Source: a virus
Virus record (IMG/VR): IMGVR_UViG_3300025086_000020
DNA length: 60,790 nt
Reading direction: 5' to 3' (one strand)
The translations under genes and the position numbers were made by a program. Below, piece by piece: positions 1 through 60,790 of the stretch. How positions within the stretch are numbered: position 1 is the stretch's first letter; each line of letters opens with the position of its first letter. The notes beneath the pieces were generated by a model. The model saw only the letters and a program-made list of their open reading frames with translations. It had not been told where the DNA came from and searched no databases.

Positions 1-124
1 ATCATATGACTGAAAATAAAATCCTTTGTTAGTATATATTTCAAATTGATTTGGTACAGGGTTATAATTCTTACTTAACATATTTTTTACTCTAATTTTC
101 ATAATTCTAATTTTTAATTAATTA
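1..124. repeat. Terminal direct repeat, copy 1 (identical to 60667..60790)
   Basis: The first 124 nt match the last 124 nt letter for letter. This is a circular-assembly overlap or a terminal redundancy. It contains the 5' part of the minus-strand ORF annotated at 60496..60768. Confidence 0.95.
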
Positions 125-23977: not shown

Positions 23978-24646
23978 ATGACAATAGATGAAATATATAA
24001 AATAGTTAAGATTCTAGCAAACAAGGAAAATAGGGGCTGGATAAAACCTTCTGAATTTAATTTATTAGCTAAAAGAGTACAGCTTGATATTATTAAAGAT
24101 AGAGTTGGTAAAGTATCTCCTGATGGAACTAACAATGGATATAGGGATGATGCCAGTATTCAAGATGAGTTAAGAACTGTTATGGAGGATTCAGGAGCAT
24201 TATCATCAACGACAAGTGGACACTCTCTTCCTACTAGTTATTTACATTTTATTAGTGCTAAGTACAATGAGTATGAAATTGACATGGTTAATCATGGAGA
24301 GATAACAAAAAGAAAAAGAAGTCAATTAAATCCTCCATCATCTGATTCTCCTATTGGTGTAATTATAGGTGATTATCTTAGAGTATACATATCAGGTGGT
24401 GAATTTGTTGAGGGAAATGGTGTGGTTAAAATGATGTATATAAAAGAACCAACAGCACCAAGCTGGGCTTACACCACCCTTAATAATGTGGAGGTTTATA
24501 ATTCTTCATCATCAGTACAAATAGCACTACCTGAAAGCACTCATAAAGAAGTTATACATAGAATACTAGCATATGTTGGTGTAACACTCAGAGAGAAAGA
24601 TGTGGTAGAGTTTGGTACATCAACAGTATTAGAACAAAATAAATAA
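23978..24646 (+). CDS. Virion structural protein, function unknown
   Basis: The track starts at a TTG at 23969. I prefer the ATG at 23978 (MTIDEIYK) because the TTG lies inside the promoter box. Confidence 0.5.
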   Translation: MTIDEIYKIVKILANKENRGWIKPSEFNLLAKRVQLDIIKDRVGKVSPDGTNNGYRDDASIQDELRTVMEDSGALSSTTSGHSLPTSYLHFISAKYNEYEIDMVNHGEITKRKRSQLNPPSSDSPIGVIIGDYLRVYISGGEFVEGNGVVKMMYIKEPTAPSWAYTTLNNVEVYNSSSSVQIALPESTHKEVIHRILAYVGVTLREKDVVEFGTSTVLEQNK

Positions 24647-29900: not shown

Positions 29901-32700
29901 TTGGAAAATATTTCACAAACCACCTATTTGGGCTAGATATTACCACTGGGTATATGCTAGAAACACTTCTGTAGGTGATTTTATGCAATTTACTATTGAC
30001 AATGCTTACGTCAATAAAGGTGCTAAAGCAGGAACAACATCTGCAGAAGCACAGAATGATACTAAAATATACATCTCCCTAAACACCATGGATGGTAGAT
30101 TATGGAGTTATAGTCAAAAAAATAGGTCTTTAGTGGGTGATTGGAGTTTTGCTGAAGGGGATAGGGTTAGACTTATAGCTCAGGCTGATGGTACTGTTTT
30201 TGATAAGTATTATGACTTTAAGGTTGGTGATGTTGGTAATTACCCTGGTAGATTTGATATTGACCCAAGTGGTGGTGAAGGTATATCAGATGATGGTGTG
30301 TCTGGTAATGTAGCATTAATTAATGAATCTCCTGTTGGGGGATCTTCTAATGAACCTCAAACTGCAAAACTTGGAAAGTTTATTGTTATAGATGACCCTA
30401 AAATAGATGGATATGGTGTAGAATTAGCTTCTGATGCTAATGGAGATATACCAAACTGGCACAAAGTAACAGTTGAAATATATAGACCTAAAAAGAATAC
30501 TACTGAAGAGCAATCACTTTATTACGAGTTCTCTGAAAGATTTGGTATAGGTGATATTGGTAAAGAAACAAGGTATCACATGGGAAGAAACGAAGGCAAT
30601 AATCAGCAACCTTCTGACTACAACTCAGATAATAAAACATTGAATGCACCAGCTAGAGGGGTTTTCATGAGAGGAGACGTTTGGTATAAACCAAGAAATT
30701 TAAAAGTTATAGATTCTGGTGGAGGTAGTGTAAATCTAGGAGAGATATGGTATGAAAGTTATTTCTTAAATGATTTTCTTCAAACAAATCACAATAACAT
30801 AGGTAGACCACACTTATACTCTATATACTCAAAAGAGCAAAGAAGAAAAGCTACATTAACTTATTCTGATGTATACCAACCTGATACACAGTATAATGGT
30901 TTACATTCATTTAGCTTTAGCCAGAGACCTTATATGGATTATGATTTATCTTTAGGTTCTATACAGAAGCTTGTATCTAGAGACACTAACCTTGTTATGC
31001 TTCAAGAAAATAAAACATCTAGAATACTTGTTAATAAAGATATAATAACAACACCAAGTGGAGACCAAGGCATAACATTGTCTACTAATGTTTTACCAGA
31101 AACTGCTGAACCATTTTCTGGAGACTATGGTGTATCTACAAACCCTGAATCTGTAGCTATACATGAATCAAAGATTTATTTTACAGATATAAAAAAGGGT
31201 GCAGTATGTAGATTAGGGGGAGATGGAATAACAGTTATATCTGACTACAAGATGAAAGATTTCTTTAGAGATAAGATGGACGAGTATCAATCTATATTAA
31301 CATCAGAATATGAAGAAAAGTTGGGGGGTGGTTTATTTATTATTGGTGGTTACGATCCAAGACATGGAGAATATGTATTAACATTCCCACCTATATATAA
31401 TACAACAACTAGTTCAACACTACAAACATCTATAGCTTTCTATAATACAAATGCTATTAATTTTAATTCAGCATCAAGTAATTTTGAAACTTTTATTACT
31501 GACCCATATATAGTAACAAATGAAAACATGGACGACAGTATACTTCAAGAGATAAATGGAAGAGAAATATCTGTAGCTCCAGTAACATTATCTTTTAATG
31601 AATCAGCTAATAGATGGTCTAGTTTTTACACTTTTTATCCTGAATATTATGGATCTTTAAATAGAGTGTTTATAAGTTTCAAAAATGGAGTCTTATATAA
31701 ACATGATTATGATTCAACTAACCATTCTATGTTTTATGAAAATCCACTACCAAGTGAAACAAAGGTTTCTTTTCCATTTAATATTGATGTTTCTTCTGTT
31801 AAGTCTTGGAACTCCCTATCTATAGAGGGTTCTGCTAAACAACAGGCAATACCACTTATTACAACTTCAGCTATTTATGCACCTGTTACTGTTACTGCTA
31901 CAACAGATAGTGCAAACCTAGAGGGAGCTAATGTTAGTTTTACAACAAATGATATAGTGGTGGGTGATTCTGTGTGGTATAATGATAATGGAACTCTTAG
32001 AACTTTAGGTGTAATAACTGCAATAACTGATGCAGATACTATTGTTACAAGTATTACAGAGGTTAATGCTTTTATAACTGCTAGTAGTACGTCATCAGGA
32101 GCTGCTTTAAATAATGTGTTTATTATAAGTGGGGGAGAGACAGCATTCAAGACTACTATGACAACAAATATAAATTCAACATCACTTGTCCACAGGTTAT
32201 CATATGATAATGATGTTAGTGGTAATAATTTCCCAGGCAACTGGGTTGAGAGAGAAGATGTTCTTAGTTCTAATATACCTCTTGGGGAAACAAATTCTGC
32301 AGGGGGAGAATACTTTGGGTTAGGTATGTCCTCTTTTGATAGTGGTTCTACGTTTTTATTAGGACGAAGCCTTTTTGGTAATCCAACAACATTAACTAAT
32401 ACTAACTACACTTCTTCAGGAGTTGTGGCTGGAGATTCTGTTTATTGGGATAATAGTGGGGTAGAAACCTTAATAGGGACAGTATCTTCTGTGAATAGTG
32501 AAAGTAAAATAACTCTTTCTGGTAACGCTACATCATCTCAGGATAATAAGTTTTGTTATGTAAAGAAAAACTCAACCATAGAGGGAGATAGATTAAAAGG
32601 ACATTATATGGATACCACATTAACAAAAAGAACTAAAGATAAAGTTCACATTTACGCTGCGAATGCAAATATAATTAACAGCGAACTTAGTAATAAATAA
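26935..32700 (+). CDS. Large tail or host-recognition structural protein (1921 aa) with two C-terminal VGD modules
   Basis: Size, position and G/S/T/N/Y-rich composition. VGD modules at 31951-32052 and 32419-32520. Confidence 0.5.
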   Translation: MQDKRNFQGGLNRDDDSRVMPNGDYFYAQNVRVLSSEDRSTMLLESVRGMIKESMPAALSDITNKGLDWRVIGSYEDRPTNCIYYFLWSAFNYHSILEYNINTDTVSIVFRDNGDVSNLLRFDKETLITGINKIDDLLYWTSDNEFEVRGIGEMVHNEPKYINVEKAKAGWTIFYDGGDYSINPQTAFNLDTMYPYEFYAIAGGGINLPTWRKRKYIDVCKTRPYPPIYFYKTPIKNITTTNQDINTLIDAETDLAFGSVTVTPGEVIYVNATITSIEESTVFDFAYKKNNLYGFMWQFAYRYVYKDNEVSSYSEWSHVMPSPQYATNKVDETKQNSYNQIRVWYWNGPADVDKIEIVARKCSYIETSPDEGNKGEYYLISTIDNNYYDANYTGASSDVESIPYQYGYNAVTTKNIPYIRTMADDGTTLQYSGEPYGYIDFRNDGVYTQVDPVAFNKLYDRVPKRAKSQELINENRIVYGNYIDGFNQVLPHFHLSPTYGEGGVQQEAPTNPLTTVDLDAWNGDPSDPQNYGLSPITPEAQGANFIDRGTKPNDLSGDATTGMLTSDYTPYSYPDIDEQLNNTQARKAFGWDSNMQRSAFTITFPTNVTSGQTFRIRMNHTVRYYANNVFKSNDENVEYPFGSGTEDSTKAYDNFGFQIDLTRQVSGGGVSGMIDDFISDIKTMANFQQSSAGAGLTDLRGNNIEGSDDFNPNFNTGKIYTTYMVDSDSNQTYAWNGGQTQGAALMRLSSIKKLDSDFGTNNVLQIEFVPYGQSIGTTGQLPENGCNEKVNKEDYYYPDGTETTNLHVWKVINESAGDDNSYRDSTKCTSCSGFQSIDNSEPGCDDGSTGLGSSRWREELKREMRSNWSGESAAGINIEGPAWSDTTGLNDANADSVKNAETAACFKSGAWHRFGLVYYDGKGRSSTVMLNTEDISDTTYDRNSSVYVGFPPERIYEQGLSDDFDTANPSGLTTTSLTNAQKLSPVNIYWKIFHKPPIWARYYHWVYARNTSVGDFMQFTIDNAYVNKGAKAGTTSAEAQNDTKIYISLNTMDGRLWSYSQKNRSLVGDWSFAEGDRVRLIAQADGTVFDKYYDFKVGDVGNYPGRFDIDPSGGEGISDDGVSGNVALINESPVGGSSNEPQTAKLGKFIVIDDPKIDGYGVELASDANGDIPNWHKVTVEIYRPKKNTTEEQSLYYEFSERFGIGDIGKETRYHMGRNEGNNQQPSDYNSDNKTLNAPARGVFMRGDVWYKPRNLKVIDSGGGSVNLGEIWYESYFLNDFLQTNHNNIGRPHLYSIYSKEQRRKATLTYSDVYQPDTQYNGLHSFSFSQRPYMDYDLSLGSIQKLVSRDTNLVMLQENKTSRILVNKDIITTPSGDQGITLSTNVLPETAEPFSGDYGVSTNPESVAIHESKIYFTDIKKGAVCRLGGDGITVISDYKMKDFFRDKMDEYQSILTSEYEEKLGGGLFIIGGYDPRHGEYVLTFPPIYNTTTSSTLQTSIAFYNTNAINFNSASSNFETFITDPYIVTNENMDDSILQEINGREISVAPVTLSFNESANRWSSFYTFYPEYYGSLNRVFISFKNGVLYKHDYDSTNHSMFYENPLPSETKVSFPFNIDVSSVKSWNSLSIEGSAKQQAIPLITTSAIYAPVTVTATTDSANLEGANVSFTTNDIVVGDSVWYNDNGTLRTLGVITAITDADTIVTSITEVNAFITASSTSSGAALNNVFIISGGETAFKTTMTTNINSTSLVHRLSYDNDVSGNNFPGNWVEREDVLSSNIPLGETNSAGGEYFGLGMSSFDSGSTFLLGRSLFGNPTTLTNTNYTSSGVVAGDSVYWDNSGVETLIGTVSSVNSESKITLSGNATSSQDNKFCYVKKNSTIEGDRLKGHYMDTTLTKRTKDKVHIYAANANIINSELSNK

Positions 32701-32727: not shown

Positions 32728-33783
32728 ATGGCTAAAAAGAAGAAAAAATTAAAAGGTTTATATGCTGCCAAGTATTTTATTGGTGGATTAATCTCTGGTA
32801 TAAAGGGGGCTAAAAAATCTAAAAAAGATATACAGAAGGCTGAACAAGATAGATTACTGCAACTACAAAAAGAAGAACAACTTAGAAGTAGTAGACAACA
32901 ACTTACTATGTCACCAGAAGTTGAGAAATTAAAAGAAGGTTTAGGTGGTACTGAAATCCAAAGAAGAGAAGAACAAACTGATAGAGCAAAAGCTGCTGCT
33001 ATGGCTGCTGCTACTAGAGGGGGAACAAGAGTAGATGCATTTGCAGCTATGGGAGCAGGAGACGCACAGGCATCTAAATTAGCACAAGACCAAGCAGAAG
33101 CACAAAGAAGAGGTTTAGAAGCTGCACAACAAGAAAGAGGAAAACTTAGAGACACTCAAGAGGCTAGGGAGCAGGCTGACTACGCAAGACAAGCCCAGTT
33201 AGCTGATTACTCCAGAGAAGATGTTATGGCTGGTCAATCAAACTTGGCAGCTTATCAACAACAACAATATAGTGGTTTAGACGCTGGTATTGGAACTCTT
33301 TTTGGAATGGGAAAAGATGGAATGGTATCTGGTAAGAAAAAATCCTTAAAGGAAAAAATAAAAGAAAGAATGACTAAAGGTGTAGAAAATAAAGATGTTA
33401 TGGAAGCTGGTGAACCTGAAGTTACTCCAGGAAAATTTTCTCATGAAAAGAATCCTATAGACCTAGTTCAGAAAAATGGAGAGAATGGTGCACCAGAAAA
33501 AATTGGTGAAATGACAGGTGGTGAGGCTATAGTCCCACCAAAGAATGTTAAGCAAATGAGAAAAATGATTGAAGAGAATAATGGAGAGGCTTTAGTTAAA
33601 TTAATGGATAGACTATTGACTAAATGGGATAAGGAGGCTGAAGACACTAGTGAGTCAAGAGAAGAGTTTAAAAAAACAATGGCTAAACATGGTGCTGTTC
33701 ATAAACCTAGAATGTCATCAGGAAAACAAATGTTTGCTTGGGATAGAGAATCTAAATTTAAAAAAGGAGGAATCTTTAAATAA
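32728..33783 (+). CDS. Putative internal virion protein (351 aa)
   Basis: Lys-rich N-terminus, Ala/Gln-rich coiled region, ends in FKKGGIFK (an x-G-G motif). It precedes the giant protein. Confidence 0.4.
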   Translation: MAKKKKKLKGLYAAKYFIGGLISGIKGAKKSKKDIQKAEQDRLLQLQKEEQLRSSRQQLTMSPEVEKLKEGLGGTEIQRREEQTDRAKAAAMAAATRGGTRVDAFAAMGAGDAQASKLAQDQAEAQRRGLEAAQQERGKLRDTQEAREQADYARQAQLADYSREDVMAGQSNLAAYQQQQYSGLDAGIGTLFGMGKDGMVSGKKKSLKEKIKERMTKGVENKDVMEAGEPEVTPGKFSHEKNPIDLVQKNGENGAPEKIGEMTGGEAIVPPKNVKQMRKMIEENNGEALVKLMDRLLTKWDKEAEDTSESREEFKKTMAKHGAVHKPRMSSGKQMFAWDRESKFKKGGIFK

Positions 33784-33791
33784 TATAATAT

Positions 33792-35546
33792 ATGCCAATA
33801 GCTAATGTATCAGAAATTGTAGGCCAAAGAGATTTGGTTAAAGAAGCTCAAGGTTGGGCTGATTTGAGGTTAAAGAAAAAACAACTTCAAGCAAGAGAGG
33901 AAAAAGAAAAACTAAAATCAAAACCTAAACCATACAATTTTAACACAGAAAACTTTGGAAGTGAGAATCCTCACATGTTTGATCTTCAACAAAACTTAAA
34001 TCAGCAAATGAGTGATTATGCTTTAGCTAATGCTGAATTGTTAAGAACAACTCCTGGAACAGAGGATTGTGGACCACAGTGTCAGCAAGCTCACAGAACT
34101 TTAAATAATATGAATAATGCTGCTAAGATGTTTACTAAATATGGGGACAATCTTCAGGGATCTTATGATGAGAGAAAAAGGCTAATGGAGGAAAATCCAG
34201 ACGCTTATGGGAATGACGAAAACATGGCAGCCTTAGAATCCTATATTAGTGCTTGGAATCAAGGACTTGGTGGAGAAGGTTTTGATATAGCATTTAATCA
34301 AAATGGTCATCTTATTGTAAATAAAAAAACAAGAAAAAAAACTCAAGCCACAACAGATGAAAATGGTGAAACTGTACCATTATGGGACAATGGAACAGAA
34401 GAAGGGACTACTGATAAGAGTCAAGCTGTAATGGAAAATGGTAAACCAAAACCACTTATGATGAGTTTGGATACTGGGGAAAGTACAGACTTTGATGTAA
34501 ACCAAATGAGCTTTAATCAATTTGTAAAAGATATTGGGTTTGATAAACCTATATCTAATGTAGGTCAACAAGGTTTTGATAAAACAATAGGTTCTTATTC
34601 TGAATTAATTTCTAGAAACCCTGATCCAAGTCTTGACCCTAAAGCAGCATATAATGAATACAATAATCAAAACTTACAAAAACTTGAAGCTTACATATAT
34701 AGTGGTGAAGGTAGAGTTAGAAGTCATTCAAAATATCTTGAGAAACTTCTTCAACAAGAAAGACTACAAGATGATGACCCTAATAATGATTTTGCACCTA
34801 TAACAAAAGATGATATAGTAGGTAAAGCTTATGAACTTGCTATGGGTAAGGCTCTAGGTGATGATAAGATGAAAGATATTAAGAAGTCTTCTGTATATGA
34901 CTTTTACGAAGAAACACTTAGTGGTGGTTATTTCGAGAATCCAGATGATATGAAGAGTGACTTTAAAGGAACAAATTATAAATTTGAGGGTAGCTCTTTT
35001 GACTCACCAGGTGGAACAGTTGATTTTAATATTAATGTTAGACCAGGTAATATTTCCCTTTTAAGTGGTGATAATCAATTCCAAAAATTAAATTCAAAAG
35101 ACCAACTAGATTCTTATAGAACAACACAAAAATTTAGTGCTAGTAGATATGGTGTGGCTTTATTTTATAAAGGAAGAGCTATATCTGATGAAGAATTTGC
35201 TAATTTAGAACCACCTGAAGAAAAGGCAAAAGCAAAATATCAAAGAGCCATGTATGGACAGTTAATATTAAATAGTGGGGAAGAAGATGATATTAAGTTA
35301 CTGATTGGTGAAAATTATGGTCTGGATAAGGACAATGTTTTAATTGATGCAATTGTACCAGCTGGTATATATGAAAGAACTGTTGGTGGTACTGGTTCTG
35401 CAAAAGAGGGTGAGGGTAAAATTAATGAAGAAATGATAAGAGATGCTCAAAAATTAGTGGAAGCTAAACAAAAGCAGCATGATGCTACCTATGGTGCTAA
35501 AAAACAAAAGAAAAAGAAAACAAACACTAGAATAGATGTATTATAA
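33792..35546 (+). CDS. Putative internal virion protein (584 aa)
   Basis: Position only. A TAATG overlap couples it to the giant ORF. Confidence 0.35.
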   Translation: MPIANVSEIVGQRDLVKEAQGWADLRLKKKQLQAREEKEKLKSKPKPYNFNTENFGSENPHMFDLQQNLNQQMSDYALANAELLRTTPGTEDCGPQCQQAHRTLNNMNNAAKMFTKYGDNLQGSYDERKRLMEENPDAYGNDENMAALESYISAWNQGLGGEGFDIAFNQNGHLIVNKKTRKKTQATTDENGETVPLWDNGTEEGTTDKSQAVMENGKPKPLMMSLDTGESTDFDVNQMSFNQFVKDIGFDKPISNVGQQGFDKTIGSYSELISRNPDPSLDPKAAYNEYNNQNLQKLEAYIYSGEGRVRSHSKYLEKLLQQERLQDDDPNNDFAPITKDDIVGKAYELAMGKALGDDKMKDIKKSSVYDFYEETLSGGYFENPDDMKSDFKGTNYKFEGSSFDSPGGTVDFNINVRPGNISLLSGDNQFQKLNSKDQLDSYRTTQKFSASRYGVALFYKGRAISDEEFANLEPPEEKAKAKYQRAMYGQLILNSGEEDDIKLLIGENYGLDKDNVLIDAIVPAGIYERTVGGTGSAKEGEGKINEEMIRDAQKLVEAKQKQHDATYGAKKQKKKKTNTRIDVL

Positions 35547-38500
35547 TGAATGAAGATTTAGACTCATTATTAGTTGATTTTTATAGTAAGTATACTGAAG
35601 AGGAACTTACCCCAGAAAAGATAAACTCCATAAAGAATACTTATGGTGATGATATTGATGGTTTACTACAAGACTTATATCAAAAGTATGGAGATGGTCA
35701 GGTAGATGAAGATAAACTAAATATCATAAAAGAAACATATGGCTTAAAAAAAAAAGACCAAACAGAACCAGATTTGGTTGGGGAAAGTGGTACATCAGAT
35801 GTGGGACCTGGTGGTTTGGACTCTTCAGAGGTTAGCATACAACCTCCCCTAGAAACTCCAAATCTTTTAATAGATGGAGTTCCAATAGAAAAAAATGAAC
35901 TAATAGATATAATAAATACTGACGAAACATTTGTTTCTGGACTAGCAGATGGCTCAATAGATTATTGGTTTGGTGGTGAAAATCTAACAGAAGAAGCTCA
36001 AGAAGAATTAGGTAATATAGAAAAAATCGTTGGAGATGCAATAGAATCTTATAGGTCTCAACAAGAGGTAGAAGAACCTAGGATTAGTGAAGAAACTGTT
36101 GAAGAAAAAATAGAAAAGGAGGATAATAGGGTAAACCCAGAAAAAGCTGTTCCAAAAGAGTCTTTAGTTCCCATTAATGAAAGACCTAATATTAATATTA
36201 ATGAAACATCAACATATAATTTAGTAAACCCCATAGTAAATGAAGCAATGGACGAGATTGACTCATTGTGGAGTAATCACCCAACATTAAATATAGAGAG
36301 TACCTTCAGAGATGAAGAGCTTAATGATAGTGTTCGTGGACATAAGCATTCATACCATTTACATGGAATGGCAATAGACTTAACAGGTCAATCAGCAAGA
36401 GATTTTATGAACTGGATTGAGAACACAGAGGAAGGAAAAAACTGGGCAGAGAAATGGACAGAGGGTGCTGATGGTGGAGCAGGAGTGGTATTAGAATATG
36501 AGGGTGAACAAAAAGAACACGTTCATATACAATTTAAAAAGGGTCTATCTCCAACTGAGAAAGAGAAAGTAATTGAAGAGCAAGGCTTAGAATCAAAAGT
36601 TAATAATTATGCTTCAGCAACATATAGTCCAGTGACTGGATATATGCTTCAAGGAAGAGATGATGAACAATCTGTATTTCCAGGCGAGGTTGATGTAGAA
36701 AAGTTTGTAACAGGAAAAAGTAAAGAAACTGGAGCTAAAACATATGATACAAAAGCAATTCAGGAAGAGGCTGGTAGAATATGGGATGCCAAGTCTGACA
36801 AGGAAAAAGAAGAGTGGGAAAAGGGAGGTTATGATAGAAAAAAATATATTGAGACTAATGGTGGTGCTCTTAGGAGGGGCCCACAAATAACTGAAGGTGA
36901 AGGTGGTAAAATACCTGACCAAACAATTGGTCCAATTGTGAATTGGCTTAAGGAAGACGTTCCAGTAGGTTTAGGTTTAAAAGAAGCTGATAAAAAAGAA
37001 AGAGTAAGAAAACAATGGCTTAGTGCAGAAAATGATGGCTGGTCTCTTCACGTTGATGATAATTTTAATTCTGCTGATATTTCTAGTCTATATACTGATA
37101 AGGAATTATCTAACTTAAATGAATGGATTTACAATCAAAAACAAAGAGATAAGGGTTATATTGATCCAACATCTCCTCATCAGGTTAGTTGGAGCTTAAG
37201 TGGTTTGTCATCTTATTATAAACAATTCTGGGACCCAGATGGAAAGGGTGGCTGGAAGTGGAGTCAAAGCCCTGATAATCAGTATTATAAAGAATTATAT
37301 GAAAGACCTAGAAAAGTTATAGAAAACTATCTAAACAATGGGTGGGAGCATGTTGGTGGTAGTAAATACAAACATAAAGAGTCTGGTATTATTATAACGC
37401 CAGAAGATACTGAGGGTAGAAATCCTCTTATTGCTAATCATCAATCTTTACCTGAGCTTGTAAAAATAATAACCTCTAATCCTAATCATTTTGTAAATGA
37501 AAATGGAGAGTTTGATTCTGATAAATTATTAGATTACTATAATAAATCTAATCCAATTGTGGCTAAAAGACTTGAGGAGGAATTGGGTTTTGTTATTAGA
37601 AAAGAAGATGGTGTAGGGGATAGAATAAGGGGTGAGCACGCTGCTAAAGCAACAGTATTTTTAAAGAAAAATTTAGATGCCATTCTTAGGAAACAGCAAG
37701 ATGTAGCTGATAAATCTGGAGCCAATAATGAGTTTAAAAAACTTGGTAGGACTATGGGGTTGGCAGAAAAGTGGATGGAGAAACAAATAGACCTGTTGGA
37801 AGAGTTTCCTATAAATGCAAATGGAACTCTTAATACTAGAAATTTAAGTAGAGAGGATATATTAAGATATAATAATCTTTTAGAAAAGTTTCAATATTTT
37901 CATGGTGGGAGGTATCAAGAGTTGTTAAAAGAACAGGAGGAAATGTTCTCGAAAGACACAAGCCTTGGACTTTTTGAATCAACTTTTCAGCTTTATGATA
38001 ATGTTTTAAAATATGGAAAATCAGGCATAAAGGAAGATTATCCACAATATTCTGATTATCAAGATAGAATTTCTAAAAGAATATTAACAGCTAGTGAACA
38101 ATATGAGAAAACTAGTTGGTTTGGTGCTTCATTAAGAAATATAGCCACCTCAACTGTTGCTTTACAAAAACAAGTACCACAAATGATTGCTGCCCTTCCT
38201 CAGCAGTTTTATGGAATGATTAGTGACGAGAACACGTTTGACTGGACAGATGCTGTTGCATCTTTTGTTAGTGATGGAATGGAGGAACGTTATATGGAAG
38301 CGACTGCTGATATGGAGGAGCTTGGAGTGCCATTAACTTCTTTTTTCTTTGCACCAAAAAGGCATGAGAACTCAGAATATTTAGGTAACGTTTACTACAC
38401 TGATGTGGATGATAATACAATTATCTTTGATAAAGATGGTGAAATAAAACATATGTTAACAAAAGATAATATACCTATAGAGGATGGTTCTGATATGTTT

Positions 38501-41500
38501 GAAAGCACAATGAAGGAATATCAAGAGAATAAAGAAAAATACCCAACAGAAACTAAAAAAGAGTGGGGTAGTTTTACACAGAACTTTCTTCAAGCAGGAA
38601 TGGGTTTTGCTCTAGACATGGCAGCAGCATACTTAACAAGAGGAAAAGTTAAGAAAATGGGTTATGGTATGAAAAGTCAAAAAGCTGCTTTTTATGCTGG
38701 TATGACAGGAATGCAAAATAGAATGTATTATAACTTTTATGAAGAAGCTTTAAATGCAGGATTAAACCCAGCTGACGCAACTGACTTTTCTAATGCTGCG
38801 ACTTTTACTACAGCTATGATAGAAATTGCAACTCCTGATTTTGGTATGCTGAATGCAGGCACTAAAAGAATGCTTGTAGGAGAAACTGTAGATGCTATTT
38901 TAGGTAAGACAAAAAAATCTGCAGTAAATAAAGTTTTGGCTAGAAACATTATTAGTAACACAGTTTTTTATGGTGGATTTGAGGGTCTAGAAGAGGTGTC
39001 ACAAGGTGTTGCTGTTGATGGCATCAAGAACAATTGGTATGGTGAGTATAATTTTGATGCTAACTTTGAAATAAACAGGTCTATTGAAGAGTTTATGATA
39101 GGTGGTATTTTAGGAGGTAGCACCACACTTGTTACAAATGTAAAAGCAGGTAGAAAAAATATAATGAGTGGTTTATACAAAGATGGTGTAATGAACGCTT
39201 ATACTAAGAAAAAAGAAGTTTTTAAAGGTATAGATAATATGGTTGGTGAAACCATTATAGTAGCGAAGAAACCAAAGGTTTTTACAAAAACTGATGCCAA
39301 GAAGTTAAAAGAAAAACTAGCAGGTCAATTTAAAACCTTAGACAATATGACTGAGGGTAAAAATATTTCAGATATTGGCAAAAGAGAGATCCTTGGTTTA
39401 TTAGATATAAAAAATTCTGCAAGCAGTCTACAGGGTATACCAGAAATTAAAGAAGAAATGTCTTTAAGGATAAAAGAAGCTGACAAGGCTATGGAAAGTA
39501 TTTTAGCTGGTAAAGATGTTGTTTCAACAATGAATACTTTTTATGATAATATGGATACTGGGATTAGTAAATATCTAGGTCCATTTACAAATATAAGTGG
39601 TCAAGATATGGATGTAAGTGTCAGAGCATTAATAAGAAAAATAAACAAAGGAGATGTTATATCTGAATCTGAGAAATCACAAATCTTACAAGCTTTATCT
39701 GAAGATATTAAAAACTTAGATTCTAAATCTATTTTAACAAGTAAAGAAAAAACTATTTTAAACCTATATAAGAAAATAGAGAAAGATATTAATAATTTAA
39801 AAACTGTAAAAGATGCAAAAACAACAACTAAGACCAGAGGTAGAGGCAAGACTGGACGAACTACCAGAGGAACTGAGGGTACGAGTATTAGAGAAGATAT
39901 TGAACAAGCTCCAACAGAAGGAGACAAAACAACCCTCAACCAAAACATTGGAAAAAAAGTCTCCTACAAAGGAAGAGAAGGAGTCTTAGCTAAAAATAAA
40001 AAAGGAGAATTTGTTTTAAAACCTATTGGGAAAGGTAGAAGTATTAAGATTAAGGATGCTACTGGAAGAAAAAGACTATCTACTCTAGGTTTAAAATATC
40101 AAGGTAAAGATATAAGTGTAACTCCAGAGGGAGATTTAATAGTTGAAGGAGATAATACTGGTGAAATACTTGGGATGTCTAAAAATGACACAGGAGGATT
40201 AGAGGGTGTTATTACTTTAGATAATAAGTTTTCTAATGAGGTGAAAGACAAGGCTAGAAAAGAATTTAAGAAGCTTCAAAATAAGAGAAATAAAGGTGAT
40301 ATTTCTCAAAACGAGTTTATAGATGGTGTAAGAAATATTGAAGGACTTAATTTAGAAACCTCAAGTGATGTTCGTTTTAAAGCAGCAGCTGATAAGATGA
40401 TGAATGATATTTTAAATTCTGGTAACGCATCTGTTATAAGCATGTTAGATGTTGAGCAGATGATAAAAGAAGCTGAACAAGAATTAGGTTATGAGACTCA
40501 GGAAAAGGAAAAACAACAGAAAGAGCAGGATGATATAAATAAAAAAAGAAAAAAGAAACAAAAAACTAAAAAACAAAAATCAGAAGTTAAACCATTGTTC
40601 GATAGCACTACTGATAATATAGACGACTTAATAGAAGAGTATTCTAAATATGAAGGATCTGAATATAGAAAAATTGTTGAAAACTTAAAAATAGCTAAAA
40701 AACTATTTAATAAATTAGGGTTTACTACAATTATACACGCTGACACAGGGTCAATGAACAATTGGTACTCAAGTCGACCTCACTTAGAGAACCCTGGTAT
40801 TGGAAGAGGATTAAATTATGAAACAGGTGTTGATGGAGTAACACCAGAAATTCACATTAACCTAGAGCTAGCAAATCCTAACACCTCATTTCATGAAGTA
40901 GCTCACCCATTTGTTACATCTATATTTAAACTAACTAAGAGTGGTAATAAAAACGCTAAAAAACTAGTTGAAAGTTTAGAAAAAATTCTACCTAAAAAGT
41001 ATTTAGATTTTGGTGCGAATTACGCTTTATTCAATAATGAAGGTGAAATTGTAAATAAAAATGAGGCAGATGGACCACTAGCAGAAGCATTAACTGAGTT
41101 TTTAGCTGATGCTGGTCTTAAAAAGTTTAACGCTGACCAAGGAACTCTTAATAAGGCTAAGAATTTTGCTAAGTCTATATTTAAAAGTTTAGGTATAGGA
41201 CCTAAAAATTGGACTGCTGACCAAGACCCAATAACCATAGGTTTAAAAGAATTATCAGACCTAACAACTGTTGAAGATGTGGTTAGAGTGTTTACTAGAG
41301 CTACATCAAGTGGAGCTAACTTAAATGAGCTAAAAAAAGGTAGACATACAGTAAAACCTAAATTCCAGTATAATATAAATGAACAGATTGATGCTCACCA
41401 TGCTGGGGACCCCAATAACTTAACAGAGGAAACAGGCTCCACATTTAATGATTTATTTGGAGACGTAAGTGGTAAACCATATACTAGTGTTTCTATATTT

Positions 41501-44500
41501 ACAGATAGAACAAAAAAAATAAAAGGTAAAAAAATTACAAAGAAAGATATAGAAGATTTTATAAAGAAAAATAAATTTATATTAGACCAACATGATTCCT
41601 TAGCAGTAGGAACTTGGTTTAACTCAAAAGATGGATTTACTTATATAGATATTTCTTCAGTCATACCTAAATCTAAACAAAAAGAAGCAGAGGCTTTGGG
41701 TAAAAAACATAATCAAATATCTATTTTTAATTTAGAGAATTTTGAATACATTGACACAGATGGTGATGGAAAAAACATAAAACATACACCAGATAATTTA
41801 CAAGAAAGAATAAAAACAATCCAAGATATAGTGGGGGATTTAAGAGTTACACCACCCTCAACACCTAAGTTTCAAGTAATAGCACCTAAAGGAACTAAAA
41901 GTTTTAACAATTGGTTTGGAGAATCTAAAACAGTTAATAATGAGGGGGAACCTGTTCCATTCTATCATGGAACTTCTAGTAAAATGTTCACCCAATTTGA
42001 TGCAGGTGTGTCAGGTTCTATATTTTTTAGCCCAGACCCTGAGTTTGCTAATGTTTTTGCTGCAGCAGATTCCAATACTGGTTGGATACCAAATTTTGAG
42101 ACATATTTACCAGGTTCTAGAGTTTTGCCTGTTTATATAAAAGCTGAAAATACTTGGGACTATGAAAACCCTGAACACAGAGAGATGGTTATTGATGAGC
42201 TTCAAAAGAGATACTTAACAACAGGTAGAGATAGATTATTATTTAACCTAGAAAGAGGTACTTGGAATTATATAGAGGGTATTAGTAATGTAATTAAAAG
42301 ATTGGGTTTTGACTCTTATCACATTTTTGAGCAAGCAGATGTAGACCCTAATGCTTTACCAAGTCAAAATATTGAAACTATAAAGAATATTGTAAAAGGA
42401 AAAGACAGTATAAAACAAATAGGTGTTAAAAATATAGCAGTATTTAATTCAAATCAAGTTCGTTCCATTAATAGGAAAGATTACACAGATATAGAATCTC
42501 CTAAATTCCAAAAAGTTGAACACAAAACAACAAGTTCCTCTATAAACTTTACAAGCATGGAAACTGGAACACCTCAACAATGGATGGCTGAATTAAAGAG
42601 AGTTGGTGGTACTAATATAGATAATGAACTTAGGTTTATAGGAATGAAAGACTTCTTAGATGCTGTTGAAACAGCTTACGTTGACTTTATGATACCTAAA
42701 GTTGCTATTCAGGATTATATAGAAATCAACAATACATCTATTGAAATGGATGGGTTTACTATGAGAATCAGTAATCCTTTATTTGAACTTGCTAAAGTAA
42801 ATGTTGAAAATAGGTATGATGATAATGGTGAGATGGCACTTTTTGTAAGTGATATAATAGCTCCTGATTTAGAGATGATGTCTAATATAATGCCAGTTGT
42901 AAGAAGCCTTGTTAGATTTGCTTCTGATAATAATTATGATAGTGTTGCGTTTGCAGATGGTAGTGCTTTTGATGGACCAAAAGCAGAGTTTTTTGGTTCT
43001 GCTGTTCCTCAAGCTATATCTGATGTTCTTTCAAGTATAGATTCAAATGCTGGACCAGTATTAACAGGTATTGGGGGTAAAGCCCAAGCATCTTTTGATG
43101 TAACAAATAAAATAACAGCTCTATCTGAAGACACTAGTAATCCATCTAATAGTGTTGAAAACACCAACGACTTTCAAGAGGGTGCAAAGACTCTATACTC
43201 AACAAAACCAAAAATGCAAAAGATTAACAATGGTCTTAGATTATGGGAGCACATAAGAGACTTTTCTCTTAAGAGAGAGTTATTACCTGAAGGTAATATA
43301 CCTAAAGATGTTTTTAATAAAGAATATAAGTATAAGGGTAGGATTCAAGCTGAGAAATTCAAACTAATGAAGCTTGTTGAAAAACTAAGAACTGTTATTT
43401 TAGAAAATCAGAAGAGTGATAATCCACTTTCGTTAAAACAAATTAATGATGCTCTATCAGACCCTACAATTAAAATACAAGAATTACAATCTGAACTAGA
43501 GGGTTATGAGAGTGATTTAGATTTACTAGAAACACAAGGAAAAAGTTATGCAGCAAAAACTGTATTAAAAAGAATAAGAGAAACAGAGGCTGAAATTAAA
43601 GAACTTAAAAAGAGTGCGTCTAACAGGTCTACTTTAAAAGACTTAGATTCAGCCCCAGAAATACAAAAATTAGTAAAACAAGTTAGAAGAAAAATAGACT
43701 CTTTAAGTAGGAAACTTAAAAGTGTTGTTAATGAGAAGCTTGGAATAACTATTGATAAGAATTTAGGTTTATATATCAATAGACAATACAGGATACATCA
43801 TGATAAAAAATATGTTGACAATATGATTAAAATAATTGACAACATGATTAATGCTGATAACAACCCAGATAAATTAGCAAAGACTATAAAAAGATTTAAG
43901 AAGGAGTATGATATTATACAAAATGCTGCCAACCTTGTTAGGGAGAGATTAGAGAAATATCGCAAAAACAATGGTCTTAATCCACCAACTGAGCATGATG
44001 TCCTACAAGAGATTAAGAGAATGTTTGATAGAGATGGAACACCATCAGAGTTTGGTAAAACAATATTTAGAGCTGACGAGGTAAATAATAAAATATTTAA
44101 AATAAGAAAAGACATTCCTAGTGAAATAGCAGCTTTATTTGATGAGGTTCAAAACCCATTATTTAACATGGTAAACTCTATAACTAAGATGGTTGATTCA
44201 TTTGAGACTATGCAGTTTCAATCAGATGTTGTTTCTAACCTAGAAGGCACAATGATCTTTAGAGAAGACAACAGACCAACTGGTAAAGATTATAAAAAAT
44301 ATGGTTATGAATTTACACTACCATTTTCTAATATAAAATACTACACGTCTGAAGAGGTAATAGAATTTATATATGGGGAGCTACCAGGATATAGTAATCT
44401 TAAATGGGCTCAGTTTTTTAATGGTGCTATTAAACTTTCTAAAACAGTTTGGTCTATTAAAACCCATGTTAGAAACCTTATGGGTAATATGTACTTTGCA

Positions 44501-46354
44501 AGTATAAATGGTCATTTCTCTCCTAAATCTTTCTTAGAGAGTATAAAGATTATGCAAAACCTATATGGTAAATCCACAACCAAAGATAGAGAGATGATGT
44601 TTATATCTATGATAGAGAATGGTATAGTAGACTCTGTTCACGCAGATGAATTGAAATCTATACTTAAAGATGGTGGTTTAGGAGTATTTATGGGAGACCT
44701 GTTTGAAGCAAACATGGATATTGATAAAGTTAAAAAGAAATATATCAGCATAAGGGATAGTTTTAAAGACCCCAAAAAAGTTCCTGCTTATGTAAAGCAG
44801 GGCTTCAAACTATTAAACTCATTTGTAAATAAAACTTATTTATGGGAGGATGTTGTATGGAAAGGTGCTGCATACATTAGTGAAGTACAACTTTACCAAG
44901 ATGCTGGTTACAGTAGAGATGAGGCTGTGAACATGGCTGCTGAAAATATAAGGGGTGGTTACACAACATATTCTCTCGTCCCAAAATTAGGTAAAAGATT
45001 AAGAAGAGCTATATTATTAAGTGACTTCGTATCTTTTCCAGCTGAAATATTTAGAACAGGTGTAGGTTCTTTAATGATTGCTAAAAAACATATTACTTCA
45101 GGGAATCCAGTGCTCGTTAAGAATGGTTTAAAAAGGTTAGCTGGAACAGCTGCTGCCTGGTATGCTTTACCACATGCTTATACAGGAATAGTTTCTGTTT
45201 GGGCTACTCTTTTCTCTATGATTAAAGATTTAGTTGATGATGAAGAAGAGTATGAAAAACCACCAATAATGTCCTATGAATTAATGAATGGTGAAGAGTT
45301 AAAAATTAACGAAGAGTTTACCCTATATGAGAACTACTCAGATTATTATGATAAGTCTATTAGGGGTGCTGACTTTGAAGACTTAAATACACCAGACGTA
45401 AGTAGAGATAAAATGATTCAATTATTTGTACCTCACTATATGAAATATGGAGATGTAAAGTTAACCTCTTGGGATGTTGATGACAATGGTGAATTTAATG
45501 GAACATATTATATATGGAACTCATCAGATAACTTATCACAAAATGTTTTAACTAACATTTGGAGTGCACTATGGAACACACCTGAAAATGATCCAACCTG
45601 GGCAAGAGATTTTATGCCACAGTTTAAGGGATCATTAGATGATGTTTTTGATGCTACTGTTAGTCCTTTTGTTAACTTTAGTATGAGTCTTGAAATGGGG
45701 ATGGAGATAATTGGGGACGTTAAGGATATGGATTATAATAAGGATAGTTGGAGTGATATTGCTGTAAAAGCCACAAAAAATGTATGGGAAACTGCATCAC
45801 CTAGTGTCATTAAAGAAATATATTCTATATCAGAAAGTTATAATCCAGATTTCTTTTTAGATGAAGATGAATTACATAAGAAAAAATCTCCAATTCACGA
45901 GACCTTGGCATTGACTGGTTTTAGGTTCTCAAGATTTAATATTGCAGAAAACTTAAACTTCAAAGTTAGAGAGATGTCTAACCATTTAAGAAAATTAGAC
46001 CCAGAAGAAAAAAGTCCTAAAAAGATAGAAAAAGAAGTTAAAAAAACTCTTGTATATATGGATAAGTTATATCATTACTCTGATGCACTTGGTATAGAAC
46101 AAGATGGTGTTGAACTGCTTGATGACAATGGGGAAAGGATAACAAGAAAAGACCTTCCAAATAAGACTAGTATAATAAGACAATACATTAAAGGATTTGG
46201 AGAGGGGAATAAAATTTATGATTTTATAGATAGAGACAGAAAGAAATTCCCAACATATGATTCTTGGATTGAGGTGTTTGGTGATGAATTAGAATGGTCT
46301 GAGTTCCTTAATGATTGGCAAAAAGAAGAATTAGAAAAACAATTAAGTGAATAA
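35546..46354 (+). CDS. Giant polyvalent virion protein (3602 aa): M15/LAS peptidase signature, HExxH motif, ART-PolyVal-like block
   Basis: SYHLHGMAID (SxHxxGxAxD, aa 269-278) plus HVH (aa 325-327). HEVAH at aa 1783-1787. PFYHGTSSKMFTQFD...IAVFNSNQVRS at about aa 2138-2310. A duplicated 27-aa N-terminal unit at 35567-35743. Several hydrophobic helices. Confidence 0.65.
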   Translation: MNEDLDSLLVDFYSKYTEEELTPEKINSIKNTYGDDIDGLLQDLYQKYGDGQVDEDKLNIIKETYGLKKKDQTEPDLVGESGTSDVGPGGLDSSEVSIQPPLETPNLLIDGVPIEKNELIDIINTDETFVSGLADGSIDYWFGGENLTEEAQEELGNIEKIVGDAIESYRSQQEVEEPRISEETVEEKIEKEDNRVNPEKAVPKESLVPINERPNININETSTYNLVNPIVNEAMDEIDSLWSNHPTLNIESTFRDEELNDSVRGHKHSYHLHGMAIDLTGQSARDFMNWIENTEEGKNWAEKWTEGADGGAGVVLEYEGEQKEHVHIQFKKGLSPTEKEKVIEEQGLESKVNNYASATYSPVTGYMLQGRDDEQSVFPGEVDVEKFVTGKSKETGAKTYDTKAIQEEAGRIWDAKSDKEKEEWEKGGYDRKKYIETNGGALRRGPQITEGEGGKIPDQTIGPIVNWLKEDVPVGLGLKEADKKERVRKQWLSAENDGWSLHVDDNFNSADISSLYTDKELSNLNEWIYNQKQRDKGYIDPTSPHQVSWSLSGLSSYYKQFWDPDGKGGWKWSQSPDNQYYKELYERPRKVIENYLNNGWEHVGGSKYKHKESGIIITPEDTEGRNPLIANHQSLPELVKIITSNPNHFVNENGEFDSDKLLDYYNKSNPIVAKRLEEELGFVIRKEDGVGDRIRGEHAAKATVFLKKNLDAILRKQQDVADKSGANNEFKKLGRTMGLAEKWMEKQIDLLEEFPINANGTLNTRNLSREDILRYNNLLEKFQYFHGGRYQELLKEQEEMFSKDTSLGLFESTFQLYDNVLKYGKSGIKEDYPQYSDYQDRISKRILTASEQYEKTSWFGASLRNIATSTVALQKQVPQMIAALPQQFYGMISDENTFDWTDAVASFVSDGMEERYMEATADMEELGVPLTSFFFAPKRHENSEYLGNVYYTDVDDNTIIFDKDGEIKHMLTKDNIPIEDGSDMFESTMKEYQENKEKYPTETKKEWGSFTQNFLQAGMGFALDMAAAYLTRGKVKKMGYGMKSQKAAFYAGMTGMQNRMYYNFYEEALNAGLNPADATDFSNAATFTTAMIEIATPDFGMLNAGTKRMLVGETVDAILGKTKKSAVNKVLARNIISNTVFYGGFEGLEEVSQGVAVDGIKNNWYGEYNFDANFEINRSIEEFMIGGILGGSTTLVTNVKAGRKNIMSGLYKDGVMNAYTKKKEVFKGIDNMVGETIIVAKKPKVFTKTDAKKLKEKLAGQFKTLDNMTEGKNISDIGKREILGLLDIKNSASSLQGIPEIKEEMSLRIKEADKAMESILAGKDVVSTMNTFYDNMDTGISKYLGPFTNISGQDMDVSVRALIRKINKGDVISESEKSQILQALSEDIKNLDSKSILTSKEKTILNLYKKIEKDINNLKTVKDAKTTTKTRGRGKTGRTTRGTEGTSIREDIEQAPTEGDKTTLNQNIGKKVSYKGREGVLAKNKKGEFVLKPIGKGRSIKIKDATGRKRLSTLGLKYQGKDISVTPEGDLIVEGDNTGEILGMSKNDTGGLEGVITLDNKFSNEVKDKARKEFKKLQNKRNKGDISQNEFIDGVRNIEGLNLETSSDVRFKAAADKMMNDILNSGNASVISMLDVEQMIKEAEQELGYETQEKEKQQKEQDDINKKRKKKQKTKKQKSEVKPLFDSTTDNIDDLIEEYSKYEGSEYRKIVENLKIAKKLFNKLGFTTIIHADTGSMNNWYSSRPHLENPGIGRGLNYETGVDGVTPEIHINLELANPNTSFHEVAHPFVTSIFKLTKSGNKNAKKLVESLEKILPKKYLDFGANYALFNNEGEIVNKNEADGPLAEALTEFLADAGLKKFNADQGTLNKAKNFAKSIFKSLGIGPKNWTADQDPITIGLKELSDLTTVEDVVRVFTRATSSGANLNELKKGRHTVKPKFQYNINEQIDAHHAGDPNNLTEETGSTFNDLFGDVSGKPYTSVSIFTDRTKKIKGKKITKKDIEDFIKKNKFILDQHDSLAVGTWFNSKDGFTYIDISSVIPKSKQKEAEALGKKHNQISIFNLENFEYIDTDGDGKNIKHTPDNLQERIKTIQDIVGDLRVTPPSTPKFQVIAPKGTKSFNNWFGESKTVNNEGEPVPFYHGTSSKMFTQFDAGVSGSIFFSPDPEFANVFAAADSNTGWIPNFETYLPGSRVLPVYIKAENTWDYENPEHREMVIDELQKRYLTTGRDRLLFNLERGTWNYIEGISNVIKRLGFDSYHIFEQADVDPNALPSQNIETIKNIVKGKDSIKQIGVKNIAVFNSNQVRSINRKDYTDIESPKFQKVEHKTTSSSINFTSMETGTPQQWMAELKRVGGTNIDNELRFIGMKDFLDAVETAYVDFMIPKVAIQDYIEINNTSIEMDGFTMRISNPLFELAKVNVENRYDDNGEMALFVSDIIAPDLEMMSNIMPVVRSLVRFASDNNYDSVAFADGSAFDGPKAEFFGSAVPQAISDVLSSIDSNAGPVLTGIGGKAQASFDVTNKITALSEDTSNPSNSVENTNDFQEGAKTLYSTKPKMQKINNGLRLWEHIRDFSLKRELLPEGNIPKDVFNKEYKYKGRIQAEKFKLMKLVEKLRTVILENQKSDNPLSLKQINDALSDPTIKIQELQSELEGYESDLDLLETQGKSYAAKTVLKRIRETEAEIKELKKSASNRSTLKDLDSAPEIQKLVKQVRRKIDSLSRKLKSVVNEKLGITIDKNLGLYINRQYRIHHDKKYVDNMIKIIDNMINADNNPDKLAKTIKRFKKEYDIIQNAANLVRERLEKYRKNNGLNPPTEHDVLQEIKRMFDRDGTPSEFGKTIFRADEVNNKIFKIRKDIPSEIAALFDEVQNPLFNMVNSITKMVDSFETMQFQSDVVSNLEGTMIFREDNRPTGKDYKKYGYEFTLPFSNIKYYTSEEVIEFIYGELPGYSNLKWAQFFNGAIKLSKTVWSIKTHVRNLMGNMYFASINGHFSPKSFLESIKIMQNLYGKSTTKDREMMFISMIENGIVDSVHADELKSILKDGGLGVFMGDLFEANMDIDKVKKKYISIRDSFKDPKKVPAYVKQGFKLLNSFVNKTYLWEDVVWKGAAYISEVQLYQDAGYSRDEAVNMAAENIRGGYTTYSLVPKLGKRLRRAILLSDFVSFPAEIFRTGVGSLMIAKKHITSGNPVLVKNGLKRLAGTAAAWYALPHAYTGIVSVWATLFSMIKDLVDDEEEYEKPPIMSYELMNGEELKINEEFTLYENYSDYYDKSIRGADFEDLNTPDVSRDKMIQLFVPHYMKYGDVKLTSWDVDDNGEFNGTYYIWNSSDNLSQNVLTNIWSALWNTPENDPTWARDFMPQFKGSLDDVFDATVSPFVNFSMSLEMGMEIIGDVKDMDYNKDSWSDIAVKATKNVWETASPSVIKEIYSISESYNPDFFLDEDELHKKKSPIHETLALTGFRFSRFNIAENLNFKVREMSNHLRKLDPEEKSPKKIEKEVKKTLVYMDKLYHYSDALGIEQDGVELLDDNGERITRKDLPNKTSIIRQYIKGFGEGNKIYDFIDRDRKKFPTYDSWIEVFGDELEWSEFLNDWQKEELEKQLSE

Positions 46355-46356
46355 AT

Positions 46357-46857
46357 ATGAAATTAGAAGTATTAAGAATATCTAGTGGACCAGATTCCAC
46401 ATCTGGAGTATTATTTATAGTAGATGATGCTGCAGACAACCCACATGGAGAGGGTTTTAGATGTAAAAGAAGTTTTGTTTGTTATACATTAGAAGATGAA
46501 AAAAGAGATAAAAAAGTTTTTGGGGAAACTAGAATCCCTGCTGGCACATATGAAATTAAACTCAGAACAGAGGGGGGATACCATGCGAAGTATTCTAAAA
46601 GATTTTCTAGTATTCATAGGGGTATGCTTCATGTCACTAATGTTCCTGGCTTTAAGTATATTCTCATTCATTGTGGCAATACTGATGAACATACTGCAGG
46701 TTGCTTACTCGTGGGTGACTCACAGGAAAACAACCAATTAAATAAGGATGGTTTTATAGGTAAATCAACACAGGCTTATAAAAGAATATATCCAAAAATA
46801 GCTGAAAAACTACTTAATAACACTAAAGTGTTAATAACTTATAAAGATATTGCTTAG
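46357..46857 (+). CDS. DUF5675-like protein with a YkuD-like H...GC motif; cell-wall enzyme or endolysin candidate
   Basis: FVCYTLED...TRIPAGTYEIKLR...VTNVPGFKYILIHCGNTDEHTAGCLLVG matches the pattern I recall for DUF5675. The His and Gly-Cys arrangement is reminiscent of L,D-transpeptidase catalytic sites. Confidence 0.4.
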   Translation: MKLEVLRISSGPDSTSGVLFIVDDAADNPHGEGFRCKRSFVCYTLEDEKRDKKVFGETRIPAGTYEIKLRTEGGYHAKYSKRFSSIHRGMLHVTNVPGFKYILIHCGNTDEHTAGCLLVGDSQENNQLNKDGFIGKSTQAYKRIYPKIAEKLLNNTKVLITYKDIA

Positions 46858-60768: not shown

Positions 60769-60790
60769 AATTCTAATTTTTAATTAATTA
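60667..60790. repeat. Terminal direct repeat, copy 2 (identical to 1..124)
   Basis: See copy 1. Confidence 0.95.

Follow-up and report, generated by a model that had tools for sequence, protein, structure and literature searches.

We analyzed a 60,790-nucleotide stretch of viral DNA (IMG/VR virus record IMGVR_UViG_3300025086_000020; 'the window' below means this whole stretch), which carries on its plus strand a single giant open reading frame (ORF) of 3602 codons. The frame runs from an ATG at 35546 to a TAA at 46352-46354 with 0 internal stops. The encoded protein, 'the giant', probably serves a Flavobacteriia-type podovirus whose tail is crAss-like as an ejection (internal virion) protein. 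It seems to be built as a phage polyvalent protein, with a conserved carrier and swappable effector cassettes, and would both breach the wall and deliver the effectors. The parts that we distinguish in it are as follows (aa, amino acids of the giant; ART, ADP-ribosyltransferase).

35546..46354, + strand: giant ORF, 3602 aa, 408 kDa, pI 5.3, 0 Cys
35558..35749, + strand: duplicated N-terminal unit, aa 5-68, two copies of ~30 aa
35741..35953, + strand: conserved leader/linker KKKDQ..P..GESGTSDV..GGLDSSE, aa 66-136
36143..36565, + strand: predicted M15/LAS zinc peptidase domain, aa ~200-340
37253..40582, + strand: conserved N-half core, aa 570-1679, no assignable fold
40541..40579, + strand: Lys-rich linker KKRKKKQKTKKQK, aa 1666-1678
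40613..41410, + strand: HExxH domain, aa 1690-1955
41411..41836, + strand: domain X, aa 1956-2097, no family match
41936..42478, + strand: predicted ART-PolyVal ADP-ribosyltransferase, aa 2131-2311, PF18760
42536..43300, + strand: conserved post-ART domain, aa 2331-2585
43301..46351, + strand: C-terminal carrier module (C-module), aa 2586-3602, all-alpha in the model

An exact 124-bp direct repeat stands at both ends of the window (1-124 and 60667-60790), as either a terminal repeat or a circular-assembly overlap; the genome is thus complete, with 60,666 unique bp. The giant ORF takes up 17.8% of these, which agrees with the first-pass annotation of the window, where a single uninterrupted ORF covering 18% of the genome had been described. 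Both window ends are unusually AT-rich (GC 0.25-0.26). On the evidence of sequence comparison, the giant frame is real and not a sequencing or assembly artefact, because the corresponding protein of an IMG/VR contig, L003, is 88% identical over giant aa 168-3602 with 3 gap positions and because intact homologues exist (P0012, 3174 aa; P0013, 3373 aa; L023, 3588 aa; other full-length ones, 3250 and 3389 aa). The L003 protein is itself uninterrupted, and the concern that sequencing errors split the ORF did not materialize. The codon differences between the giant and L003 (386 synonymous, 402 non-synonymous) are, at the sequence level, what purifying selection leaves in coding DNA.

Among 50,697 phage records, there was no match to the ORF by megablast and none to aa 1-1800 by tblastn; in a word-indexed search of 5.8 billion proteins, aa 1-1250 found nothing and aa 1690-2330 found one fragment. 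The whole giant has no meaningful match among all sequences of the Protein Data Bank (PDB). Segment-wise scans with Pfam and NCBIfam gave nothing beyond ART and M15, and a segment-wise PHROGs scan gave only ART and a C-terminal 'virion structural' family.

The protein had been called polyvalent, and one chain does combine an ART-PolyVal domain with a conserved HExxH motif and an M15 zinc site that is complete. The ART match is above the Pfam cut-off (PF18760, 43.6 bits versus 31.2, E 6.6e-11), with a second match to phrog_21376 (E 6e-15); the block YHGT...VFNSNQVRS, which had been likened to polyvalent proteins, is part of this domain. By tblastn, the ART domain was located within further phage ORFs of great length: F116 p60 (1649 aa), Pseudomonas USP_18 gp31 (4947 aa), Octadecabacter BD1 gp16 (2986 aa) and Caulobacter Jess A gp39 (2039 aa). 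The active site of ART-PolyVal, a family related to Tox-ART-HYD2, comprises a His in strand 1, a Tyr in strand 2 and an Asp in strand 5 (PMC5512222). In a six-sequence alignment, H2141 and D2256 of the giant align with the family His and Asp.

The M15/LAS signature noted at first pass is likewise complete in its zinc motifs, with SxHxxGxAxD present as SYHLHGMAID (aa 269-278) and HVH at aa 325-327. Pfam M15 is above threshold in the orthologues P0012 (32.7 bits, E 9e-8) and P0013 (34.9 bits, E 1.8e-8), which are 48-49% identical to the giant over this region, and the endolysin family phrog_894 matches the same region of the giant (E 3.8e-5). At the M15 position, P0015 has a Phage_lysozyme2 domain instead.

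The third site, the HExxH, is also as reported, kept in relatives and the only one in the giant (HEVAH, aa 1783-1787). The giant, P0012, P0013 and Elemovirus gp18 all have the elements IIH, IHIN, AN..T, HEVAH and two Glu without variation; the two Glu (aa 1849 and 1853) follow the first His by 64 and 68 residues. Judged by its sequence, the HExxH domain is a probable gluzincin-type metallopeptidase, which we assign to no named family. In a low-confidence AlphaFold model, the HExxH part has a zincin-compatible order of strands and helices at a predicted local distance difference test score (pLDDT) of 50-65. The following domain X also occurs in P0012 and P0011. It carries YIDTDGDGK, a DxDxDG calcium-loop-like motif, and it travels with the ART cassette, yet as a separate piece.

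In front of these domains, the duplicated N-terminal unit claimed earlier is present and highly non-random: aa 5-36 and 38-68 share 13 of 30 residues, and their local score of 76 is reached by 0 of 2000 shuffles (19.5 +/- 4.1; z-score near 14). Duplicated leaders of like form are found in P0013, P0015 and P0016, though the unit sequences are quite different, and a unit related to that of the giant ('ELTPEK') starts Elemovirus gp18 (L007 7852-8060). The unit could be a targeting, docking or cleavage signal. The leader/linker that comes next is common even to P0015, which is 23% identical to the giant. Between the M15 and HExxH domains lies the N-half core, which is Gly-rich and amphipathic in stretches within aa 1013-1201 and basic, with much Gly, Lys and Arg, at aa ~1400-1600. 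The core is very rare, with 7 relatives among 1.84 billion representative proteins. The Lys-rich linker described at first pass was found as well, at the border of the conserved core and the variable middle.

Of the post-ART domain, only aa ~2390-2520 were modelled with confidence, and this part of the low-confidence model gave GNAT-like matches in Foldseek. We regard a GNAT-like post-ART domain as a lead only, suggested by the model; there is no GNAT match by sequence profile, by Pfam or among PDB sequences, and aa 2430-2470 show no R/QxxGxG/A motif.

The C-terminal ~1200 aa, pointed out at first pass, are present and conserved. The C-module is recognizable by the motifs KTVWSIKTHVRNLMGNMYFASINGHF and Y.TYSLVPK..K.LRR....FVSFPAE..RT and is common to at least 127 IMG/VR phage contigs in one scan, from which we analyzed 79 relatives in ORFs of 1189-3812 aa. 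Residues ~2585-3575 match proteins of Cellulophaga phages phi18:3, phi13:2 and phi19:3, and also Pseudoalteromonas phage Y3 ORF31, in which the C-module comes after an ART-PolyVal, and Pelagibacter phage HTVC027P gp85. The annotation of the phi18:3 homologue, gp123, as a virion structural protein comes from tandem mass spectrometry (MS/MS) proteomics, and the 'virion structural protein' family phrog_22602 matches the C-module with an E value of 8e-12. Because of this homology to gp123 and phrog_22602, we read the giant as a virion protein, in support of what had been proposed at first pass. The C-module model matches many models in BFVD named 'large polyvalent protein associated domain-containing protein' (E down to 1e-16); a C-module profile found no meaningful match among all PDB sequences. 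Shorter members bear a tail lysozyme or a glucosaminidase; in a T7-like marine contig, a fusion of C-module and tail lysozyme stands at a gp16-like position, after ORFs of 689, 234, 198 and 437 aa.

Two comparisons touch on the giant virion RNA polymerase (vRNAP) of N4-like phages. Foldseek gave a weak match of the C-module to a segment of the Vibrio phi50-12 vRNAP (E 0.04, probability 0.95), and hhalign of the C-module against N4 gp50 aa 3203-3438 gave P 0.0038, with no gain from an 8-sequence N4-like profile (0.0069). For a homology between the C-module and the C-terminus of N4 gp50, these are hints that do not amount to proof. Pseudoalteromonas phage vB_PunP_Y3 (L001 1-8225) has been described as derived from N4-like viruses. 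Its ORF30 is a 3421-aa polyvalent protein (ddrB-ParB/ART/methylase/LPD5/HExxH/LPD1), and ORF31, directly after it, is a 1027-aa protein of ART plus C-module. In the published annotation of Y3, the ART counts as an auxiliary metabolic gene; the gene context points to an ejection protein.

Pairwise maps of the relatives reveal a constant scaffold of N-terminal leader, wall hydrolase, core and C-module, and a middle that varies. The ART is a presence/absence cassette (aa ~2098-2327): it is kept in L023 and L003, and is exactly what P0012 lacks, where 19 aa replace 231. In P0013, P0004 and L004, an unrelated 334-aa module replaces aa 1955-2331, that is, domain X and ART. Domain X is joined straight to the post-ART domain in P0011, and aa 1680-2585 are absent altogether from P0015. 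Among the 79 relatives, 12 have an ART upstream of the C-module. Cassette differences among orthologues are the behaviour that Iyer et al. describe for polyvalent proteins (PMC5512222). The frame is interrupted in one relative: L004 (TARA scaffold_1544; P0005), ~45% identical, has an in-frame TAA (8298-8300) at giant residue 3133, which is read through in other relatives, including P0004. The C-module may truly be split there, or the sequence may be in error. A splitting of L004 by a real frameshift was rejected in part, as the interruption is partly an N-run scaffold gap. Elemovirus gp18 was rejected as a homologue of the scaffold, its relation to the giant being limited to the HExxH domain and the N-terminal unit.

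The absence of Cys is the strongest indirect evidence here for ejection, by analogy with known ejection proteins. The giant has 0 Cys in 3602 aa, compared to 0.72% in the other 41 ORFs (P ~5e-12), and its 79 relatives have 5 in 176,448 aa. As controls, T7 gp15/16 and N4 gp50/51/52 have 0 Cys, and N4 replication proteins have 1.1-1.4%. Suppression of Cys in the ejection operons of Schitoviridae has been attributed to passage through the periplasm (PMC11445570).

The giant gene is encoded among late/virion genes, in one plus-strand operon with the order ring, muzzle, two small ORFs, giant and DUF5675.

24646..26217, + strand: tail ring protein homologue (CrAss_Ring_2)
26935..32700, + strand: crAss-type muzzle protein homologue, 1921 aa, crAss_MUZ E 8.7e-21
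32728..33783, + strand: 351-aa ORF, Cys-free, candidate small ejection protein by position only
33792..35546, + strand: 584-aa ORF, 2 Cys, no family match, candidate second ejection protein by position only
46357..46857, + strand: DUF5675 protein, 166 aa, 4 Cys

The stop codon of the upstream ORF and the start codon of the giant overlap in a TAATG, and 2 nt separate the giant stop from the next gene, so that the giant gene belongs to a tightly coupled operon. At the portal, identity to Flavobacteriia podoviruses (Elemovirus, Maribacter phage Panino, Pachyviridae and Tenacibaculum phages) is 31-38%, and the muzzle homologue also matches phi18:3 gp114/115 (Pachyviridae) and Elemovirus gp22. A crAss-type ring and muzzle in a 61-kb genome would mean that this tail design seems to reach beyond Crassvirales-sized phages. 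The 351-aa ORF has a basic poly-Lys/amphipathic N-terminus and a long Gln/Ala/Glu-rich low-complexity body; small ORFs at the same position in phi18:3, Elemovirus and the T7-like contig are all Cys-free and unrelated in sequence. The two putative internal proteins that the first-pass annotation placed upstream stand only as candidates by position, and the 'cell-wall enzyme' it placed downstream does not: that gene encodes only a DUF5675 protein, which has no match among PDB sequences. A stretch of it, LIHCGNTDEHTAGCLLVG, bears by eye a resemblance to what we take to be an L,D-transpeptidase (YkuD)-like His/Cys site. The DUF5675 gene is syntenic directly after the giant gene in L003 and L004. 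Elsewhere in the window, shortly before the terminase, a 216-aa ORF (14235-14885) carries a GroES (Cpn10) domain at its C-terminus; GroES/GroEL are encoded by Elemovirus as well. The plus-strand late block ends with an ORF for an HNH endonuclease (48703-49095) that is rich in Cys (5.4%).

We favor ejection as the fate of the giant because it has no Cys, like the T7 and N4 ejection proteins, and because its gene has the position of a crAss cargo gene. The proposal that the protein is ejected with the DNA thus gains support from its composition and from its place after ring and muzzle homologues. On the other hand, a number of observations weigh against the reading of the giant as an ejected multi-enzyme protein. 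We infer its presence in the virion, its ejection and processing and all its enzyme activities from sequence. The M15_3 match of the giant itself is sub-threshold (E 1.3e-3, 19.3 bits versus a gathering threshold of 23.2), and the position of the catalytic ART Tyr is occupied by F2160 in the six-sequence alignment. The HExxH region has no profile match to Pfam models or PDB sequences, and hhalign against the HExxH regions of N4 gp50 and Y3 ORF30 gave non-significant probabilities of 1-4%. As for structure, the AlphaFold model of aa 1690-2590 (5 sequences) has a pLDDT of 41 and yields no fold assignment for HExxH, domain X or ART; the all-alpha model of aa 2412-3602 (11 sequences) is also of low confidence (pLDDT 53), and Foldseek matched the C-module to no solved structure in the PDB (E >= 0.087). 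The giant has no sequence or profile similarity to T7 gp16. Finally, there are no convincing transmembrane helices, with no 19-residue window across the giant exceeding a Kyte-Doolittle mean of 1.21, and the 'hydrophobic helices' and 'stretches' mentioned at first pass were an overstatement. Among the enzyme families proposed there, then, the Pfam search gave a significant hit for ART, a sub-threshold one for M15 in this copy and none for HExxH.

Some of these points would be expected if the giant were purely structural, an ejectosome scaffold whose enzyme-like domains are decayed remnants and which serves as channel or capsid/tail filler in the manner of T7 gp16, with no cargo role. The Phe in place of the catalytic Tyr, the weak M15 score and the unplaced HExxH all fit such decay, as do the absence of ART from close relatives and the fact that the best-conserved parts are the non-enzymatic N-half core and C-module. 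Decay is harder to reconcile with the residues that have been kept, however. All three M15 zinc ligands and the ART His and Asp are intact, and the HExxH and its two Glu are invariant over ~40-50% divergence and in Elemovirus gp18. Similarly, the ART region is 84-85% identical in L003 with its frame undamaged, and the Tyr position holds Phe in Octadecabacter BD1 gp16 and Trp in Pseudomonas USP_18, so that a substitution there is seen in other family members too. We consider a pure scaffold unlikely.

It is considerably less likely still that the giant is a cytoplasmic multi-enzyme late protein that never enters the virion, for instance in lysis or defence, and is encoded by chance in the structural block. 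Some homologues are annotated as 'lysin' or 'lysis protein', and an M15 domain is typical of endolysins; however, the C-module is homologous to virion proteins verified by MS/MS, the absence of Cys over 176 kaa of relatives fits ejection proteins and not cytoplasmic enzymes, and the giant gene is translationally coupled within a tail/cargo operon. Least probable of all, and hardly to be expected, is a vRNAP carrier like N4 gp50 or crAss gp47/49/50 with a divergent polymerase hidden in the N-half core: the size class, genomic position and lack of Cys are those of the N4 and crAss giants, the HExxH lies in the C-terminal half as in the N4 and DEV vRNAPs, the screened part of the genome yielded no RNA polymerase and the C-module has its weak Foldseek match to an N4-like vRNAP segment, but no vRNAP Pfam domain was matched in a scan that finds four in N4 gp50, no PDB sequence was matched at E<=1 (in a PDB copy unchecked for vRNAP chains), the only DxDxD sits in the dispensable domain X, T7-type motif B is absent and the invariant residues of the N-half core include no acidic cluster such as a polymerase site typically has. 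An RNA polymerase in the giant was rejected at the sequence level, as there are no domains or motifs for one.

If the giant is an ejection protein with effector cassettes, its action might run as follows. It would be packaged in the capsid with the two small upstream proteins and, at infection, extruded largely unfolded, N-terminus first, via portal and muzzle. The N-terminal M15 peptidase would then cut peptidoglycan cross-links locally, and the helical N-half core and C-module, with their amphipathic stretches, could help to build or line a trans-envelope conduit. The HExxH metallopeptidase may cut the chain of the giant, and ART-PolyVal, possibly with neighbour domains, would transfer ADP-ribose onto host proteins early in infection.

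Read in this manner, the giant would be a well-delimited injected multi-enzyme protein from a phage of an abundant marine host group, with domain borders that are defined by natural variants in which ART is present, absent or exchanged for another cassette. These variants are ready constructs for examining the roles of the ART and the HExxH protease early in infection, and the C-module together with the absence of Cys gives a simple means of searching uncultured podoviruses for ejected proteins by computer. A broader idea is possible, although we think it rather unlikely: the C-module would be of ancient origin and serve generally to carry proteins out of podovirus capsids via the tail, the extreme C-terminus of N4-like vRNAPs included. 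If so, one carrier would be common to the giant, to hundreds of marine phage proteins of 1.2-3.8 kaa and to N4 gp50 aa ~3200-3440, and effector cassettes (ART, the alternative modules and possibly a GNAT-like one) would be shuffled between a wall-breaching N-terminus and the carrier. One superfamily would then unite the giant ejection proteins of N4-like, crAss-tailed and T7-like marine phages, and injected anti-host effectors could be catalogued by mining for Cys-free ORFs with a C-module.

The first-pass annotation could match the giant to nothing nameable, and here it must be corrected, since the protein can be named both as a polyvalent protein (Iyer et al. 2017; PMC5512222) and as a giant podovirus ejection protein. 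With polyvalent proteins it shares disparate enzyme domains in one very long chain encoded among late/virion genes, an ART-PolyVal, a predicted peptidoglycan-cleaving domain, an HExxH that may be of the kind proposed to process the chain, and domain cassettes that differ between orthologues. It differs from them in that it shows neither a detectable LPD family nor one of the Pfam MPTase families, in that its wall enzyme is an M15/LAS peptidase where the usual one is a lysozyme, and in that two thirds of it (N-half core and C-module) are unannotated scaffold.

Among ejection proteins, the 3500-aa vRNAP gp50 of N4-like phages (Schitoviridae), which shares an ejection operon with gp51 and gp52 (PMC13434306, PMC11445570), is of the same size class, also Cys-free and multi-domain, and has an HExxH in its C-terminal half; by analogy, we assume a beads-on-a-string form for the giant. 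Two smaller candidate ejection proteins adjoin the giant as well, and its position after two small ORFs resembles both T7 gp14-16 and N4 gp50-52. In contrast to gp50, the giant is without RNA polymerase domains, and its cargo would be M15 plus ART-PolyVal. No homology to T7 gp15/16 or N4 gp51 came out of a profile test. Like the giant, T7 gp16 (internal virion protein D) is Cys-free, follows smaller core proteins and has a long helical body behind an N-terminal peptidoglycan hydrolase (a predicted one in the giant), and short C-module members (1.2-1.6 kaa, with lysozyme or glucosaminidase) occupy a gp16-like position in the T7-like contig; the giant, however, is ~3x longer and has extra effector cassettes.

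In crAss001 (PMC10172136), the order of muzzle gp44, C1 gp45, C2 gp46 and giant cargo gp47/49/50 is the same as here, with ring-2 and muzzle upstream. The crAss001 genome is ~100 kb and has three giant genes, whereas the present one is 61 kb and has one, and the giant has no detectable similarity to the crAss RNAP-associated proteins. Giant virion proteins also occur in isolated Flavobacteriia phages, namely Cellulophaga phi18:3 gp123 (1935 aa) and Flavobacterium Elemovirus gp18 (3694 aa), which are Cys-free and syntenic, after a muzzle homologue and small Cys-free ORFs. Gp123 shares the C-module of the giant, and gp18 shares the HExxH domain and N-terminal unit; the rest of each is unrelated, neither combines M15 with ART, and gp18 has a DUF3293. 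The giant is therefore an unannotated example of two classes already known, polyvalent proteins and giant podovirus ejection proteins. Specific to it are the combination of M15, HExxH and ART on a crAss-tailed 61-kb Flavobacteriia-type phage, the rare N-half core and the duplicated leader.

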